NCBI GenBank assembly: GCA_964016885.1
Contig: OZ024759.1
Location: forward strand, 15,190,001 to 15,254,000
Origin: Eledone cirrhosa
Lineage: Eukaryota
DNA length: 64,000 bases
Direction: 5' to 3'
A program made the translations under genes and the position numbers. The notes beneath the pieces are model-generated. The model did not search any database. It had not been told where the DNA came from and was given only the letters and a program-made list of their open reading frames with translations. The first letter of the stretch is position 1. Every line of letters starts with the position of its first letter. This document shows, in pieces, positions 2,636-61,110 of the stretch.

Positions 2636-3534
2636 ACCCAGCATTTCCCGGGTTAATGCTGTTCTTATTCAGATAAGTAAACAATAAATATGAAGTCATG
2701 TTGTTTTTTTTTCTCTCCTAATTATTTCAAAATATCTATATTTTATTTTTTTAATTAACAAAATTGTAAATTTAATAGAATTTAGAAATGAAAATCTGAC
2801 AATCTTGAATCACCTTAGGGGGAACACTGTTCATTGTATTATCTTTTGTAGGTGTCCAAATGAATAAATTGTTGCCACACACTTAGACACATACACTCTC
2901 AGATACACTCACATATATATACCAAGGCAGACATACATTCACGCATATCTTTTCTATTCATTTTTTTTTGTCAGGTGCAACATATGTATCTATATGTGTA
3001 GATGAGTGGGTATTTAATAAGGTGCCTAATGAACGCGCACACACACTCACAGACATACATATTCATATACAAAATGTTACGTCGTTGTGTTGTTTCCTAT
3101 TATTTTAATCCAAACGAAAATAAAAAATGATCACACATACATACACATACACACACACTCACACACACTCACACACACATACACTCACATACACATACAC
3201 TCACACACACATACACTCTCACATACACTCACATACATAGACTAAGACAGACACACGCAGGTATACCTTCACGCACACCTATTACTTGTATGTGAACACA
3301 TGTATGTGTATATATAAATATATATATATAGGAACTTGTTCAGGACACAGACGGCAGCGCTCAATCCATTTCGACGGCTATTTCTGGATGCAATTAGATT
3401 TTTAGCGTGGTAATAATTAGCTGAACTTTTCAAGGGGTAATTCCATATATGGGCGTGCGATAATCATGCATTTCTGAAGATAGTAGTTGTCAAAAGGATT
3501 CGTCAAAGTTAAATCTTTCACAATTAAATCTTTC

Positions 3535-3540
<6 letters not shown>
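2636..3540. repeat. left arm of ~0.9-kb inverted duplication (partner 6947-7825)
   Basis: gcatttcccgggttaatgctgttcttattcag...caaagttaaatctttcacaattaaatctttc is the reverse complement of 6947-7825. Confidence 0.9.
3345..3438 (-). ncRNA. degenerate hammerhead ribozyme, family E
   Basis: Reverse-complement copy of 7046-7139, within the inverted duplication. Confidence 0.5.
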
Positions 3541-3599
<59 letters not shown>

Positions 3600-3673
3600 T
3601 GTGTGTGTCTGTATATTTATATATATATGTATATATATGCATATGTATATATATGTATATGTATATATATGTG

Positions 3674-6886: not shown

Positions 6887-6946
<60 letters not shown>

Positions 6947-6947
<1 letters not shown>

Positions 6948-7825
6948 GAGAAAGATTTAATTGTGAAAGATTTAATTTTGACGAATCCTTTTGACAACTA
7001 CTATCTTCAGAAATGCATGATTATCGCACGCCCATATATGGAATTACCCCTTGAAAAGTTCAGCTAATTATTACCACGCTAAAAATCTAATTCCATCAAT
7101 AAATAGCCGTCGAAATGGCTTGAGCTCTGCCGTCGGGGTCTTGAACAATTTCCTCTATATATATATATATATATTTATATTTACACATACATGTGTTCAC
7201 ATACAAGTAATAGGTGTGCCTGAAAGTATACCTGCGTGGGTCTAATTAGTGTATGTATGTGAGAGTGTGTGTATGAGTGTATGTCGGAGTGCATGTGTGT
7301 GTGAGTGTGTGTGTATGTGTATGTATGTGTGATCATTGTTATTTTCGGTTGGATTAATATAATAGAAAACAACACAACGACGTAACATTTTGTATATGAA
7401 TATGTATGTCTGTGAGTGTGTGTGCGCGTTCATTAGGAACCTTATTAAATACCCACTCATCTACACATATATATACATATGTTGCACCTGACAAAAAAAA
7501 AAGGAATAGAAAAGATATGCGTGAATGTATGTCTGCCTTGGTATATATATGTGAGTGTATCTGAGAGTGTATGTGTCTAAGTGTGTGGCAACAATTTATT
7601 CATTTGGACACCTACAAAAGATAATACAATGAACAGTGTTCCCCCTAAGGTGATTCAAGATTGACAGATTTTCATTTCTAAATTCTATTAAATTTAAAAT
7701 TTTGTTAATTAAAACAATAAAATATAGATATTTTGAAATAATTAGGAGATAAAAACAACAACATGACTTCATATTTATTGTTTACTTATCTGAATAAGAA
7801 CAGCATTAACCCGGGAAACGCTGAG
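6947..7825. repeat. right arm of inverted duplication (partner 2636-3540)
   Basis: Reverse-complement identity. Confidence 0.9.
7046..7139 (+). ncRNA. type I hammerhead ribozyme, family E (degenerate core)
   Basis: Stem I ACCCC/GGGGT; core TTGAAAA (cf. CUGAAGA); long stem II ending TAGCCGTC; GAAA-TGGC..GCCGT-C (GUC site). Confidence 0.6.
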
Positions 7826-13786: not shown

Positions 13787-13964
13787 CAACTTGTTTATAG
13801 AATTCTTTCTGCCTTTGTTACTCTAAATATAAACTATAGCTTTGAAGAATTAGCTTTTAATGAATTCCCTTTTCTATCAACCAATGACCTACACCCATCC
13901 CACTCCCTACCCTCTCTTAACACCTGAAGAGACCTATAAATACCATATTTATTTTTTGATACCC

Positions 13965-14015
13965 AGATTCCTGATGATTTCTAAAGAATGAAACAGTTCT
14001 AGTCCTGTAGAATCT
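13965..14015 (+). ncRNA. type I hammerhead ribozyme, family B
   Basis: Stem I AGATTC/GAATCT; CTGATGA; stem II tTTC-TAAA-GAAt; GAA-ACAG-ttctagtc-CTGT-A (GUA site). Confidence 0.8.
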
Positions 14016-14027
14016 CATCTATATTAA

Positions 14028-14113
<86 letters not shown>

Positions 14114-15148: not shown

Positions 15149-15501
15149 GGAGGTGAGTTTTATTGTAGCAACAAACATCGGATAAGTAGCACTCTACAGT
15201 TTGTAAGACCGGAGTATAAATAATATAAGATCAAAAGATTGTTAAAAGAGCTCCAAGTATTTTATTATGCGCATTTCAAAAACAAATATCATCATGGGAT
15301 GATATTTGCGTTCTCATATATGTTGCGTTCTGATGGTATGTTGATTCAAAACTTCACTGCTCTCAAGTGTGTTTTAAACTACATATCATGTTTCCCCATT
15401 TTATCTGATGAGAACGAAAATATCATCCCATGATGATATTTGTTTTTGAAATGCGCATAATAAAATGCTTGGAATTCTTTTACCCATCTTTTCATCTTAT
15501 A

Positions 15502-15508
<7 letters not shown>
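15145..15508. mobile_element. PLE pLTR-like insert with inverted repeat, hammerhead family C
   Basis: 15220-15325 is the reverse complement of 15408-15505; homologous to 55338-55665; lies inside (TA)n. Confidence 0.75.
15399..15465 (+). ncRNA. type I hammerhead ribozyme, family C
   Basis: Stem I TTTTAT/ATAAAA; CTGATGA; stem II including AAATATCATC-CCAT-GATGATATTT; GAA-ATGCGCAT-A (palindromic stem III, AUA site). Confidence 0.85.
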
Positions 15509-15551
<43 letters not shown>

Positions 15552-27858: not shown

Positions 27859-27863
<5 letters not shown>

Positions 27864-28066
27864 TTTATTTTATAGAAGGAGCTTCTACAGGACTAGTACT
27901 GTTTCATTCAGATGAAATCTTCAGGAAGCTTCCTGAAGATTTCATCTGAATGAAACAGTACTAGTCCTGTAGAAGCTCCTTCTATAAAATAAAAAAAATT
28001 TACTCTGCCATGTATTGAGTACCTTACTTACTGTGGTTATCCCCGACTCAACCCGGGACCTACGTA
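27859..28066. mobile_element. perfect ~140-bp palindrome carrying two family-B hammerheads, plus pLTR-like tail
   Basis: Centre aagctt at 27926-27931; AGCTTC-CTGAAGA-tTTCA-TC-TGAAt-GAA-ACAG..CTGT-A-GAAGCT. Confidence 0.85.
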
Positions 28067-28381: not shown

Positions 28382-28501
28382 AAAAGAGTTACGACGCCGG
28401 CGGCTGAGCTCCGGTCGTTTCGACAGCTAGATCAGAACTGTCTGAGTTCGGATCTAGCTGTTGAAACGGCTGGAGCTCAGCCTTCGGGGTCCCGACTCTT
28501 T
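28382..28501. repeat. family-E fold-back element abutting the PLE RT
   Basis: ggctgagctcc..gtttcgacagctagatc...gatctagctgttgaaacggctggagctcagcc. Confidence 0.75.
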
Positions 28502-29895
28502 TGAGTACTCTGGTGACACATTTCCTAATAGTATAGTGGGTTTTCTTAAAAGGTTATGTTTTGCTGATCAGAGATTTTATGGTAGTTCCTCGCTTTTCTA
28601 CCACTTTAATCTTTAAGTGGGTCTTTCTCAGGGCCTTTCTACACAGGTCAGCTAATTTCCCTCCAGGGGTAGCGTCCACGAACATGACACTCTGGTATCT
28701 CTGGTTGTCGTACCATGAGGTTGCTTTCCCTATCTTATGTGTAGTCCTATCTAAGCTATTCCATGATTTGCTCCTGTATAATGGGCAAATTCCTTTCATG
28801 TCCAGTTGTATGAGGGTCTTATGCTTCTCCGTGGCTCCTTGGTATACTCTGACTCTGTCTCTTTGGTTGTAGCCAGAGAACTGCTTGCGGTTGATGAAGT
28901 GTTGGATGTGTCTTTCCACTTCTGTTGAGTCGCACATGCGGGACAGGTTCTTCATCACTCGTACCAAGTCTGCGATAAGAATATTAAACTTAGCACTACT
29001 GGACATTGCTGAGTTTTTGAGTATCAGGTATTTGGAGGCCAAGGGTTTAGCGTAGTGTGACTGGAGAATTTAGGCCCTCTCGTCTATAGTTTTATTCCAG
29101 AGTTCCGTGTCTAATACAGGTAGTCTACTGTTAGGGTGTTTCGAAGGGTAGTCGATAGTTACAGTTATACTCTGGTGTATGGAGTCAGCTATCTGCTGGA
29201 TGCTTTCCATTGGGCTACATTCTAAATCATATTTGTTAGTACTCTCTTGTGGGTGTGTCCCTATTACTATATTAATGTCGTCTACGTAACGAGAGTACAT
29301 GATGAGGTCTATGGAGCTCTCCTCAAGGAGATCTCTGAGTCCTCTTTCCCACAATCCCATAAAAAAGTTAGCAACGTCAACAGCTATGTTGACGCCTATG
29401 GCTGCTCCTTCATTTTGGGTGTAGATCTTTTCGTTGAATTTGTATATGTGGCCCTTTATGCTAGTTTTAATACTAGACCCTATTGCATGCGCGACCATTT
29501 TCTTACCTGATCATCGTTTTGGGGGGTCCGTACCGCTTAGGTCCACCCAATCCACCTTCCCATGGGTGTCCTTTTTGCCATTGATGTTATAGGGAGGGGG
29601 TCTATCTCTTATGGGTCTACTGGGACGGCTAAGGTCATGGTGTCATAGGTAAGTCTAAGTAGGAGGCCCAGTTCATCTGTGTCGACGGCGCAGAACTCCA
29701 CCTCAGTCTCACTGATCATCTCACACATTTTCCCACAGCAAAATCAATGTTAATGGATGGGTATAGTGATACCACGTCCATACTGCCTATTATGCAGTTA
29801 GATAGGTTTTTGTTGCACTCATTGATTCTGCTAAAGAGGCCCTCTGTACTGTCACATACATCTGGGGACATCTTGATTATGGGGCGTATAACCAT
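28502..29895 (-). pseudogene. Penelope-like (Neptune-type) reverse transcriptase, disrupted
   Basis: GSMDVVSLYPSI, YTQNEGAAIG, YSRYVDD, LPVLD, HYAKP, SGY, PLYRSKSW, FVDATPGGKL, KVVEKRG motifs; TAA stops and frameshifts. Confidence 0.88.
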
Positions 29896-29907
29896 ATATA
29901 TATATAT

Positions 29908-30100
29908 AACGAAGGAAGTGTGGTAAGGAACCAGATGGACCATAACGCACCAGAGTACTCAATACTTAGAGTAGTAGAGTGGGTAATAGGAGAAAGTATG
30001 ACCCCGACGGCAGAGCTCAAGCCGTTGAAACGGCTATTTCTGGACTGAAATAACCGTTGAAACGGCTTGAGCTCTGTCGCCGGGGTTAAACATTTTACTA
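29908..30100. repeat. family-E fold-back element
   Basis: aacgaaggaagtgtggtaaggaacc...gagctcaagccg...cggcttgagctc. Confidence 0.8.
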
Positions 30101-30491
30101 TATATATATATATGTGTATATATATATATATATATAAACGTATATACACACACACATGTATATAGGATTACGCCAACACACACAAATAAGATAAAGAATA
30201 TCCACTCACAATACAAGCATAAGTACATACACATACATGCATACAAAAAAGTATACACATACGTATAAATTACAACTATAATTTATTACAGTTTTTTTCG
30301 TACAGATGCTGTCTATCTCCATCTTCAATCACAAATCCTGGTTTCACCATTAAATGATGGTACAATACATGTATCTAAGATACCGCTTATTGGAAGCAAA
30401 ACTTGGGCTCACATATTTGCCCAATATAACTACTTAAACACTCTGTCATCACCTTCTGGTGTGAGTGTATATATATATGTGTGAGATATAT

Positions 30492-34262: not shown

Positions 34263-34620
34263 ACGCCATGCTTTGCAGCAAAGAGTTACGGCCCTTTATG
34301 ATCTGAGTTCAAATCACGCCGAGGTTAACTTTGCCTTTCATCCTTACGGGGTAGATACAATAAAGTACCAGTAATACACTGGAGTAATTGCTCACCGTGT
34401 GCCAAAAGTAGAAACAATTATTATTTATAATTGTTTCTACTTTAGGCACAAGGCCAGCAATTACTCCAGTGTATTACTGGTACTTTATTTTATCGATCCC
34501 ATAAGGATGAAAGGCAAAGGTAACCTCGGCGGGATTTGAACTCAGTGCGTAAAGGGACGTAACTCTATGCCGTAAAGCATGGCGTCCGACTCTTTAATGA
34601 TACTGCCAATCCACCACCCT
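34263..34620. mobile_element. two SINEs in tail-to-tail inverted orientation
   Basis: + copy 34263-34425, - copy 34428-34620. Confidence 0.9.
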
Positions 34621-36192: not shown

Positions 36193-36389
36193 GTATAGGA
36201 TTATCCAAGATGTAGTAATGGTTAATTACTACACTGATATGGTTGACGTACAGTAAGAGGTTACTCTACGAGTTATGGAAGAATTGTTGAAGAAACTTAG
36301 TTCCTGATCCTTCAGTATTCCGGAGTGTATAAGAATATAAAGAATGAATAATAACAGGTAGACATCATAAAAAGGTAATTTATTCCGTG

Positions 36390-36501
36390 TGCTTACAAGT
36401 GTTTCCACGGTGGTACTGCAGCCTAGTTATGCTACGTGCAAATTCACAAGTACTTGCAGAACTCAAATATCCAATGCTGTGACCACTGTTTCCTCAGAGC
36501 A
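36390..36501 (-). ncRNA. type I hammerhead ribozyme, family F (long stem II)
   Basis: On - strand: TGCT-CTGAGGA-aACAGTGGT...ACCACCGTg-GAA-ACACTTGT-A-AGCA. Confidence 0.8.
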
Positions 36502-36559
36502 GAATGTAAGCACACGGAATAAATTACCTTTTTATGATGTCTACCTGATATTATTCATT

Positions 36560-36595
<36 letters not shown>

Positions 36596-37780: not shown

Positions 37781-37809
<29 letters not shown>

Positions 37810-37812
<3 letters not shown>

Positions 37813-38006
37813 CGAAGGAAATGTGGTAAGGAACCAGGTGGACCATAACGCACCAAAGTACTCAATACTTGAGGTAGTAGAGTGGGTAATAGGAACCAGT
37901 AAGACCCCGACAGCTGAGCTCAAGCCGTTTCGACGGCTAATTCTGGACCAGAATTAGCCGTCGAAACGGCTTGAGCTCAGCTGTCGGGGTCTTACTGGTT
38001 CCTATA
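37810..38006. repeat. family-E fold-back element (perfect palindrome 37888-38006)
   Basis: Centre ctgg-a-ccag at 37947. Confidence 0.9.
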
Positions 38007-38368
38007 TATATATATATATATATTTATATATACAGAGAGAGAGAGAGAGAGATACTGATGAAATAAATACATCATCATATACATGATTTTACTTTCATCA
38101 GTACGATTCTATTAATATTTCTATCCATCTATTTGTTGCTCAACAACAAACGAAGTTTTAATTAGTACTTATAATCCTTAAAAGAGAAATATAATCACGA
38201 TTCTGAGATCATGGACAAGATGGTCTGTTTATTTCAGACATATATATATAATTACTGCCTTTTAAGCTTTGAAGTAACGCCAGCTCAAAGTCCACATACA
38301 TATATACACACGAACACACAGATGAATATACAGTGTAAATAATCACACACCCACATGCATATATATAC

Positions 38369-40985: not shown

Positions 40986-41025
40986 TGTCTTCTGATGAAG
41001 GACTAACGTCCGAAACGCTAGGACA
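40986..41025 (+). ncRNA. minimal type I hammerhead, family A
   Basis: TGTCTT-CTGATGA-a-GGAC-TAAC-GTCC-GAAAC-GC-T-AGGACA (U16.1 mutated to C in this copy). Confidence 0.7.
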
Positions 41026-41802: not shown

Positions 41803-42796
41803 CTATTATGTATCCTCCCGTTGTATTGTAATGTCTACGCCATTTTAATTCTGTGGGTATGTTCCATTCGTTTTATTGATTTTTTTTCTCTCAACAGTGT
41901 GTGTCTGTAGGTAAGTTAAATGGTTTCATGTGCTGATTATGTGAGTCGAGAAAACGTAGAGGTAAAAATATCTGTAGAGAAGAGAAGATTCATCACATAC
42001 ATCATACTTAATCATACTTACAATTAGAATCTTGCCTCCTGAAAATCATTTCTCATTTTAAAAGTGTTTAACAAATGATATATCAAATAATGTCATTACT
42101 TCATTGGATCTATGTTGCAAGAAATGCAGTTAGAAGATTCTTTTATAATTTTAACTTAATCAATGATGCTTATATTGTATTATATTTGATAATAAAAAAA
42201 CTATTCTATATAATAACGATAATAATTTAGTTTGAAAAATATATCCAATGCATGATTACGACGTTCAGTTTTCTGCTGACTTTGATTAGATTTGTCTGTG
42301 GTATATGATTGCAGAAGTAATTTAAGTTTACGTTTCCATAAAATCCCGAGGCTTTAATGTATATTATAATTTGATATTAGTACATTTTAATTGAAAATTA
42401 TCAAAATATATAGGTTTTCTTTTAAGACATAGTACAATTTTTATCAGTTGGATTTCATATGGTTTTCGATTTATAGTGAAATCTGCACTTAATATATTTC
42501 AGGAGACATCTGGAACACAAGTGATTAATAGTATATCATATATATGACAGCACTTGTGTAAATAGTATTAACTGTTTGTACTAAAAGAACTTGTTTCTAA
42601 CATTTGAAAAAGGTCATTTACATAATAAGCAGATAAATATTAGATCAACGTCATAGGTTGTATTGCGCCATAAGTTGATATATTAAAATGTTGGTGTATA
42701 TGAAACATACATTGCATGTATATATATATATATAGTATATCCGTAGACAGGGTAAAGGAAGCGAGAGTGTTCTATGTATGCTACAGAGCTATTTAA

Positions 42797-43014
42797 TTAT
42801 GTAATAAGCAACACAATACAATTATACCATTTACCAAAGGTTTCACGAAGACAGGCGAGCTCAACAGAAAAGTCTGAAGTCGTTCATCAAAATGAAAATG
42901 TTCATATTAAAATGTTCTTTCTGATGAACGATTTCAGACGTCTCTGTTGAGCTCGCCTGTCTTCGGGAAACCTTTGGTAAATGTAATAATTGTCTTATGT
43001 TGTTTATTACATAA

Positions 43015-43015
<1 letters not shown>
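42797..43015. mobile_element. inverted repeat with two family-D hammerheads (42828-42894 -, 42917-42983 +)
   Basis: Consensus CATT-CTGATGA-ACGA...TCGT-GAA-ACC-TTT-GGT-A-AATG. Confidence 0.75.
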
Positions 43016-43050
<35 letters not shown>

Positions 43051-51147: not shown

Positions 51148-51150
<3 letters not shown>

Positions 51151-51246
51151 CGGAAGAAATGTGGTAAGCAACCAGGTGGACCATAACGTCCAGAATTAGC
51201 CGTCGAAACGGCTTCAGCTCAGCCGTCGGGGTCCTACTCGTTCCTA
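51148..51246. repeat. family-E element, internally deleted
   Basis: aacggaagaaatgtggtaagcaaccaggtggaccataacg joined to tccagaattagccgtcgaaacgg. Confidence 0.75.
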
Positions 51247-51266
51247 TATATATATACCATTATTTA

Positions 51267-54424: not shown

Positions 54425-54617
54425 AGGAACGAGTAGGACCCCGACGGCTGAGCTCAAGCCGTTTCGACGGCTAGTTCTGGACTGAACTAGCCGTCGAAAC
54501 GGCTTGAGCTCAGCCGTCGGGGTCCTACTCGTTCCTATTACCCACTCTACTACCCTAAGTATTGAATAATTTGGTGCGTTATGGTCCACCTGGTTCCTTA
54601 CCACATTTCCTTCGTTA
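54425..54617. repeat. family-E fold-back element
   Basis: Palindrome 54425-54535 plus unique tail. Confidence 0.9.
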
Positions 54618-55035: not shown

Positions 55036-55118
55036 TATATATATATATATATATAAATATAATTACAAAGTGACATAAACAGGTACTCAAGTTTCGTTGG
55101 GCTCTGGTCCCCAATTTG

Positions 55119-55168
55119 ACAGGCTGAATGAATTGGGGCCCAGAACCCAACGAAACTTGAGTACCTGT
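55119..55168 (+). ncRNA. type I hammerhead ribozyme, family G (8-nt core CUGAAUGA)
   Basis: ACAGG-CTGAATGA-aTTGGG-gcccagaa-CCCAAc-GAA-ACTTGAGT-A-CCTGT; lies in the inverted repeat 55061-55188. Confidence 0.75.
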
Positions 55169-55277
55169 TTATGTCACTGTTGTAATTATTTATACTTAAC
55201 TCGTCCAATGGACTGAGTGCTCTTACCCTTTGATATTTCCACCTAACCTTTACTACAGTGTATATATACACACACAC

Positions 55278-55337
<60 letters not shown>

Positions 55338-55343
<6 letters not shown>

Positions 55344-55660
55344 AGATCAAAAGATGGTTAAAGGAGTTCCATGTATTTTATTATGCGCATTTCAAAAACA
55401 AACATCATCATGCAATAATATTTGTGTTTTCATCAGAATGTTCTCCTGTTTTCATCAGAATGTTCTCCTGTTTTATCTGATGAAAACACAAATATTATTG
55501 CATGATGATATTTGTTTTTGAAATGCGCATAATAAAATACATGGAACTCCTTTAACCATCTTTTGATCTTATATTATGTATACTCCAGTCCTACAAACTG
55601 TAGAGTGCTTCTTATCCGATATCTGCATTGCTTTATTGTACTACAATAAAACTCACCTCC

Positions 55661-55900: not shown

Positions 55901-56059
55901 ATATTCATTAGTTAAGCAAAACAAGACCACAGACTTCACAAGGAAGACATTATTAAAATATTATTATTCTCTACATTCCTTACATCAAACTAAAATATGT
56001 TGACAATATTTTAATAATGTCTTCCTTGTGAAGTTTGTGGTCTTGTTTTGCTTAACTAA

Positions 56060-56065
<6 letters not shown>
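55901..56065. repeat. ~60-bp inverted repeat ending at (TA)n
   Basis: atattcattagttaagcaaaacaagacc...ggtcttgttttgcttaactaatgaatat. Confidence 0.85.
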
Positions 56066-56128
<63 letters not shown>

Positions 56129-58908: not shown

Positions 58909-58910
<2 letters not shown>

Positions 58911-59074
58911 ACGAAGGAAATGTGGTATGGAACCAGGTAGACCATAACGCACCAAAGTACTCAATACTTAGGGTAGTAGAGTGGGTAATAGGAACGAGTA
59001 GGACCCCAACGGCTGGACTGTCCAGAATTAGCTGTCGAAACGGCTTGAGCTCAGCCGTCGGGGTCCTACTCGTT

Positions 59075-59078
<4 letters not shown>
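58909..59078. repeat. family-E element with central deletion
   Basis: Homology to 37810-38006. Confidence 0.85.
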
Positions 59079-59107
<29 letters not shown>

Positions 59108-60914: not shown

Positions 60915-61110
60915 TAACGAAGGAGTTGTGTTAAGGTACTAGGTGGACCATAACACACCAGAGTACTCAATACTTAGGGTAGTAGAGAGGGTAATGGGAA
61001 AATGTATGACCCCGACGTTCAGGCTCAAGCTGTTTCGACGGCTATTTCTGGACTACATATAGCCGTCGAAACAGCTTGAGCTCTGCCGTCGGGGTCATAC
61101 ATTTTCTTAT
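60915..61110. repeat. family-E fold-back element
   Basis: Homology to 37810-38006. Confidence 0.85.

Follow-up and report, generated by a model that had tools for sequence, protein, structure and literature searches.

The recurrent short palindromes in this part of the Eledone cirrhosa genome are probably head-to-head pairs of very short copies of a Hydra-clade Penelope-like element, produced by two primings of reverse transcription, with each cDNA running off at the 5′ end of the element RNA. Our window, the whole 64,000-nucleotide stretch of DNA that was analysed, lies on contig 20 of the assembly; all eight copies of this palindrome family (family E) that a first-pass annotation had named were located where it had placed them, and its description of the palindrome arms as hammerhead 3′ halves without the 5′ core proved right.

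The insertion at 37810–38005 consists of an 80-base unique stretch followed by a near-perfect palindrome, and the whole of it lies within (TA)n, with target microsatellite at 37782–37809 on the left and 38004–38030 on the right. The palindrome proper (37890–38005, 116 bases) has an arm identity of 99% and a fold z-score of −17, none of 200 shuffles being as stable, and the window contains 10 occurrences of TAGCCGTC, where 0.63 would be expected. Its tailed arm (37890–37948, minus strand) is a hammerhead 3′ half that ends 40 bases 5′ of the cut site; 37806–37948 matches positions 592 to 450 of L108, the reference copy among our fetched loci (which carry L-numbers), at 99.3%. The tail-less arm (37948–38005, plus strand) holds the stem II 3′ strand, GAAA, stem III, the GUC cut site and the stem I 3′ strand, and ends 38 bases 5′ of the cut site on one side and at +17 on the other; it matches L108 452 to 509 at 100% and shares one base with the tailed arm at the junction. 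The one-sided tail of about 80–82 bases (37810–37889, minus strand), which the first-pass annotation had left unexplained, is the stretch of the element between +17 and +99, counted from the cut site in the 3′ direction, and only one arm has it. It maps to L108 507–588, which continues into the open reading frame (ORF), and its far end would be the first priming site.

The family is abundant and tied to TA runs. A 17-base motif of the arm has 60,041 exact matches in the 3.0-Gb assembly, against none for the reversed control, and matches on opposite strands lie from 25 bases to more than 5 kb apart. At least 23 loci on many contigs, the window's own counted, are identical over all 195 bases of 37810–38004; because of this identity, the mirrored letters that had been put down as copy-specific variants are instead letters of a subfamily. 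TA runs adjoin all 30 top copies on the left and, on the right, the 29 whose right end was located, and 120 of 135 tail ends are followed by TATA; these (TA)n flanks mask any target site duplication of fixed length. Our pair counts come from about 1 Mb of fetched DNA, most of it taken from around the window and from the beginning of contig 1, with some loci chosen for carrying a core.

Within the window, palindromes with the tail on the left lie at 29907–30101 and, in an older copy, at 60915–61106, while that at 54425–54617 has its tail on the right and its tail-less arm is the longer. The two arms at 29907–30101 resemble different subfamilies, a possible chimera; a small hairpin loop in both of its arms (30017–30064) reads as flipped relative to other copies. 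In the palindrome at 28382–28515, of a divergent subfamily, both arms end at the homologous position, with an extra G on one, and the tail is partly deleted. The insertions at 51148–51247 and 58909–59079 had been described as internally deleted copies; an early end of the tailed arm at insertion is the better reading, within the tail in the former and 8 bases past the cut site in the latter, the tail-less arm reaching 40 in both. A longer tail-less arm of an older subfamily (6945–7152, plus strand) carries a complete hammerhead: the full layout reported for this copy, at 7046, stands, but its supposedly degenerate core reads UUGAAAA (7051–7057), the U3–A8 covariant core. A second copy of the same arm lies at 3328–3543 on the minus strand, within an inverted duplication (2636–3636 against 7826–6865, 90.6%) that takes in about 1 kb round the core-bearing arm and has simple repeats between its halves.

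Where opposite-strand pairs of the motif lie wide apart, they enclose a reverse transcriptase (RT) with a C-terminal GIY-YIG domain, and the longer copies run into this ORF, which bears out the earlier proposal of a Penelope-like pLTR hammerhead as the source of the arms. The full copy L108 has direct pLTRs and an open frame of 786 codons, in which YRDD and YIG motifs are found; L108 and L096 both combine direct pLTRs with an inverted arm, a partial tandem layout of Penelope-like type, and tandem arrays give a unit length of about 3.53 kb. The L108 frame carries the Hydra-clade motifs DKT, RWR, CNCPDRSIC, CNLC and CKH, in which RWR, against the clade's RWK, is one conservative change. As set out by Craig et al. 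(PMC8557442), the clade is defined by DKT, RWK, a CxCx5C linker, CxxC and CxH, a C-terminal endonuclease (EN) and insertion into (TA)n, and the L108 protein is, by eye, close to the Hydra proteins of file S4 of that study. By its motifs and (TA)n target, then, the parent appears to be an EN+ Penelope-like element of the Hydra clade. Homologues of the ORF numbered 1,906 among 8,000 scored candidates, the best about 40–54% identical, and a Pfam scan of the L108 ORF returned no family. DNA transposon classes that target TA were dropped as candidates after the RT–EN ORFs were found. Many other Hydra-type ORFs lie in the fetched blocks at 30–50% identity, the clade being diverse in this genome. At L384 6770–9900, a 55-base piece of ORF is repeated more than 55 times head-to-tail at the 5′ end of a tandem array, through either reiterative synthesis by the RT or satellite expansion.

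The parent pLTR fits a type I hammerhead in its core, GAAA, UH and three stems, and is predicted to carry a complete one: the L108 pLTR takes the hammerhead fold at minimum energy, and this fold lies 4.0 kcal/mol above the minimum in the decayed copy at 7046 and 5.3 kcal/mol above it in a C3–A8 copy. The core pattern has 4,822 matches genome-wide, so relatives with an intact core do exist, as the first-pass annotation had expected. Among 30 fetched core-bearing loci, 25 have UUGANAA (U3–A8) and 5 have CUGANAA (a C3–A8 mismatch), and position 7 of the core varies freely; U3–A8 is a known covariant of C3–G8 in Penelope hammerheads (PMC4209133). Full pLTRs with an intact core were therefore found, mostly of the U3–A8 form, but the CUGANGA that had been anticipated, placed directly before the palindrome stem, gave no match. 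A looser core pattern gave 24 matches, 9 of them full ribozymes with a G8 core, which we rejected as a separate family since they look like single changes within C3–A8 subfamilies; in the divergent subfamily, one stem II pair has changed from G–C to A–U. C3–A8 mismatched cores make up about one in five core matches yet are widely spread, so ribozyme activity may not matter; successful subfamilies with this core are seen at L136, L148, L149, L158 and L164. Rfam searches gave no match on L108 330–640, 8 weak matches and no hammerhead family on the family F motif (below), and, on the whole window, at least 150 matches, those listed being to miRNA families and nearly all on simple repeats; hammerheads with a U3–A8 core and a long loop thus escape Rfam. 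The short palindromes have no complete catalytic core, their arms ending before the 5′ half.

We found that arms end at one of two places downstream of the cut site, +17 or +99, and that exactly one arm is tailed in 59 of 61 short head-to-head pairs and in 31 of 34 wider ones, the short tail-less exception being the copy at 28382 with its partly deleted tail. Either arm can be the longer. Among the 40 of the 61 short pairs that were well matched to the reference, the longer arm was the tailed one in 15 and the tail-less one in 14, with 11 equal, and in 23 long insertions scored by eye it was the tailed arm in 10 and the tail-less arm in 13. Some tailed arms (that at 51148 in the window, and others) end within the tail, and the partner holds the ribozyme half; the 135 tail ends show no excess of tailed arms that end precisely at the cut site. 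The combination of one tailed and one tail-less arm per insertion, either of which may be longer, favours two primings. It also fits what is described for a purified Penelope-like (Poseidon) protein, which cuts and extends both strands and starts reverse transcription at two internal sites that bound the tail (PMC11167929).

Arm sequences and junctions bear on how many RNAs and how many events are involved. Arms differ by a mean of 5.1 within pairs against 10.2 between pairs, both values being inflated by misregistered indels; the two arms are nearly always of one subfamily, which suggests one RNA, and two possible chimeric pairs (at 29908 in the window and at C1:13301054) suggest two RNAs at least sometimes. 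The 61 short pairs show 26 different spacings at their junctions, which is at odds with a centre fixed at a stem II hairpin, as the first-pass annotation had it, and supports its view that palindromes form again and again. Indeed, all 10 of 10 junctions in the youngest subfamily differ, and an identical junction recurs in different subfamilies, so that each insertion likely makes its own junction.

The 5′ limit of the arms is sharp. In the 100 motif matches at the head of the contig 1 list (88 scored and 12 read by eye), 79 arms stop 48 bases or fewer 5′ of the cut site, 3 stop at 49–100 and 18 carry the core, which makes the stop rate per base about 24-fold higher before 48. Most family E stops fall at 35–45, within loop II, with exact-match reaches peaking at 35, 40 and 41 and ending at 45; we preferred these reaches to a first x-drop histogram, which self-similarity had inflated by 1–7 bases. 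The stop is spread over 41–46 and does not fall on one base. The A of T(T/C)AGT(C/T), which we take to be an initiator-like motif, is at position 41, inside loop II, and in the youngest E subfamily TATTTAAA precedes the stop by 29 bases; older E subfamilies have only a poor TATA-like box, and the 28382 type has none. Wherever one arm passed the stop and its partner held the 3′ half, the partner had passed it too (8 of 8 in the contig 1 sample, in which three further core arms had no partner with a 3′ half), suggesting that passing is a property of the template. Contigs from three sequencing runs cover the element and have opposite-strand joints near the stop; the runs, which may come from the same sample, cannot show starts.

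A natural control is provided by family F (27859–28065, 13840–14032 and L335), a second Hydra-type family with the canonical CUGAUGA core, which leads into a Hydra-type ORF, 47.6% identical over the first 560 aligned residues. It has about 5,500 palindromes, in which complete hammerheads are kept; that at 27859–28065 has the same tailed and tail-less layout as in family E with its CUGANGA core in place, and pairs have exactly one tail in 12 of 13 cases, the exception lying at a locus edge. A perfect TATA box, TATAAATA, starts 75 bases 5′ of the family F cut site, and the arms stop at 45, that is, at TATA+30; in the longer arm at 13840–14032 (plus strand), the box is at 13935, 30 bases before the stop position at 13965. 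Here the entire ribozyme lies 3′ of the stop, which falls at the 5′ base of stem I, so it is the promoter, rather than stem II, that the stop tracks. Twelve listed arms of that subfamily reach the stop A; two templated bases beyond it are seen in none of the 12 and an extra G in 4 (by eye).

In full-length L1 insertions, an extra G marks capped 5′ ends (PMC11702581). At 50 listed junctions with both family E arms reaching 41, a single C/G insert is present in 5 and a templated A/T in 1, and about two thirds of the E arms in that set continue to 42–46 (by eye). Across E junctions, C follows both cDNA ends in 376 cases against 8 for T, a count that overstates the cap signal and is supportive only, because short templated repeats of CTG(G), taken from the arm itself, would also account for many of the double-C junctions. 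The first 30 of 411 pLTR–ORF junction matches belong to 26 insertions, of which 6 show run-off and jump: the cDNA stops at L108 446–460, resumes at 651–1407, mostly at the ORF start, and stops again, and L351 shows three stops. Such copies indicate a template that carried the ORF downstream of the priming sites and that likely began at the stop. Together, the extra G at the stop and the run-off-and-jump copies are consistent with an RNA whose 5′ end is capped. Other insertions pass the stop: in one array of about 4.3 units it is read through every time, which suggests a circular or tandem template, or seamless jumps. Two cases, at L385 586 and L371 1600, hint at a cleaved or ligated template: the end of a full-length arm in one, and a jump by an arm in the other, lie a single base 5′ of the cut site.

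The parent element, the TA target, the ends at +17 and +99, the sharp stop, the diverse junctions and the jump products are read directly from the genomic copies; the course of events that we propose from them is as follows. Transcription of the family E element would start in loop II of the hammerhead, as the stop and the initiator-like motif suggest, and the extra G points to an RNA that is likely capped at that start. The element protein would bind near the front of this RNA, and both cut ends of the (TA)n target would prime reverse transcription internally, at +99 and +17, usually on one RNA molecule. Both cDNAs would then run to the capped 5′ end in loop II, and their 3′ ends would be joined head-to-head via 0–2 bases of microhomology or short inserts, giving as the usual product a palindrome of two half ribozymes with one tail; sometimes the RT would jump. 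The core would be missing because the start lies after the ribozyme 5′ half, which was never on the template and so was not deleted, and the palindromes would be dead ends because the upstream promoter is lacking as well. Long insertions, a minority, would need a template without this end (a circle or tandem read-through) or a seamless jump; arrays that pass the stop at every unit are explained only by a second template class.

The first-pass annotation had proposed instead that a single cDNA snaps back at stem II and copies itself, so that the core is deleted. This would give arms that mirror one subfamily, as they do in nearly all pairs, small hairpins are indeed present in loop II, and self-priming has been put forward for the palindromic junctions of rotifer Penelope elements (PMC3846280). 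Fold-back of one cDNA, however, needs a tailed arm at least as long as its partner, and the tailed arm is longest in only 15 of 29 unequal short pairs and 10 of 23 long insertions, the tail-less one being longer in the other 14 and 13. This arm-length symmetry largely refutes the model; tailed arms that end in the tail with the ribozyme half on the partner, junctions that lack the complete loop expected to survive fold-back at stem II, and family F palindromes that retain the core also speak against it, and we regard it as very unlikely. A less improbable alternative, although still an unlikely one, keeps the two primings and ascribes the stop to a nuclease cut of the RNA, or to an RT that stalls where a bound protein or a structure forms a barrier at one set point of the pLTR. 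It is favoured by the similar distance of the stop from the cut site in the two families (41–45 in E and 45 in F), by the weak TATA of older E subfamilies and by the templated repeats that confound the extra-C counts. Yet the stop lies in loop II in E and at the 5′ base of stem I in F, which share no RNA structure there, and in F it falls exactly 30 bases after TATAAATA; independent stalling would not let both arms pass together as they did in all eight cases, and arrays repeatedly read through the supposed barrier.

Two further explanations were weighed. If the palindromes were non-autonomous MITE- or SINE-like units amplified from a few palindromic masters, the 23 or more identical 195-base copies on many contigs would be expected, and these insertions do resemble MITEs in being short and palindromic, in their tens of thousands of copies and in their TA flanks. 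They differ from MITEs in their asymmetric ends, with a tail at one end and no symmetric TIRs, in their variable centre and in their RT–EN parent, into which the arms grade continuously, and the first-pass annotation was right not to class them as such; given also the wholly different junctions of the youngest subfamily and the sharing of a junction across subfamilies, amplification from masters seems highly improbable. About equally hard to credit is a loss of the centres of long inverted insertions after they had inserted, by cruciform or replication slippage deletion. Long palindromes are unstable, and long inverted-repeat insertions of this family are common, but deletion gives no boundary at a single position, no extra G and no repeated stop-and-jump units, and copies identical to the youngest subfamily are already short. 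Two primings with run-off at an RNA 5′ end remain the reading that we favour.

The parent closely resembles the Hydra clade as described by Craig et al. (2021, PMC8557442), its nearest named member by eye being Hydra-1_Obim: shared features are a single ORF with a C-terminal GIY-YIG domain, DKT, a CxCx5C linker, CxxC and CxH, the (TA)n target, a hammerhead near the 3′ end, inverted 5′-truncated copies and a tail at one end. Set against that description, our element has RWR in place of RWK, a unit of 3.5 kb rather than less than 3 kb, and a tail of 82 rather than 30–40 bases; it differs from the Hydra rows examined in file S2 in its U3–A8 core and long loop II, and most of its insertions are palindromes of less than 200 bases. 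The Poseidon element PAc of the green anole (Frangieh et al. 2024, PMC11167929) shares two internal RT starts that bound the tail, extension of both target strands, an AT-rich target and a hammerhead upstream of the starts. That work was done in vitro and left later steps open, whereas the genomic products here show one site per strand, a stop at the probable RNA start, and jumps. Schistosoma minimal hammerheads (Cervera and de la Peña 2014, PMC4209133) share the U3–A8 covariation, a palindromic loop III and opposite-strand motif pairs 100–700 bases apart; they keep whole cores, in contrast to our family, in which pairs of half ribozymes are commonest and stem III has its full 5–6 pairs. L1 twin priming (PMC11702581) likewise has a second target end that primes internally and an extra G at the capped end, but twin priming in L1 begins at poly(A) and yields halves without overlap, whereas the two cDNAs overlap here. 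Identity with the non-LTR retrozyme, described in a 2026 preprint as tandem units each with a complete type I hammerhead, was rejected, as our pairs are inverted half ribozymes and the short tandem units of L351 also lack the 5′ half.

If this reading holds, the palindromes would expose a missing replication step of Penelope-like elements, since tens of thousands of abortive insertions record, to the base, where the two primings take place, where the RNA likely starts and how the RT behaves there, and the same marks are seen in two families of one genome. In retroviruses, minus-strand strong-stop DNA is a short cDNA made near the RNA 5′ end that must jump; it is tRNA-primed and is not integrated, whereas both cDNAs here are target-primed and fixed in the genome. 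We suggest, tentatively, that Penelope-like elements regenerate their pLTRs by a similar strong-stop-and-jump, and that in this family the promoter splits the ribozyme, so that the mRNA would start with the substrate half and carry a whole hammerhead only at its 3′ end, and the 41 bases from start to cut would act as an R-like repeat for strand transfer (or the ends might pair as a bipartite ribozyme to give a circle). Tens of thousands of palindromes would then be a fossil record of failed jumps. The account of Drosophila Penelope placed the start in the upstream pLTR and noted no obvious mechanism of pLTR regeneration (PMC2377424), and octopus Penelope-like elements have been counted without such detail (PMC13282606). 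Head-to-head truncated copies, tails, pLTR hammerheads, U3–A8 cores, two start sites and an octopus Hydra family are already in print; in the literature searched, which did not extend to subscription journals or Repbase reports, we found no account of strong-stop palindromes or of a start within a Penelope hammerhead. The element is then of a known kind, with a mechanistic signature that is likely new. For annotators, products of this kind may lie behind abundant 'MITEs' or 'SINEs' in (TA)n, as de novo annotation could misfile them.

Further palindromes of other families lie elsewhere in the window. Those at 15215–15510, 42790–43021 and 55331–55582 are also in (TA)n and have CUGAUGA...GAAA hammerhead layouts, and are probably the same phenomenon. 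Other near-perfect palindromes, mostly beside TA runs, were seen at 34263–34585, 36335–36567, 55052–55194 and 55901–56066. Two short CUGAUGA...GAAAC motifs with a 5-pair stem II, at 40991 and 50993, are likely minimal hammerheads of another family.
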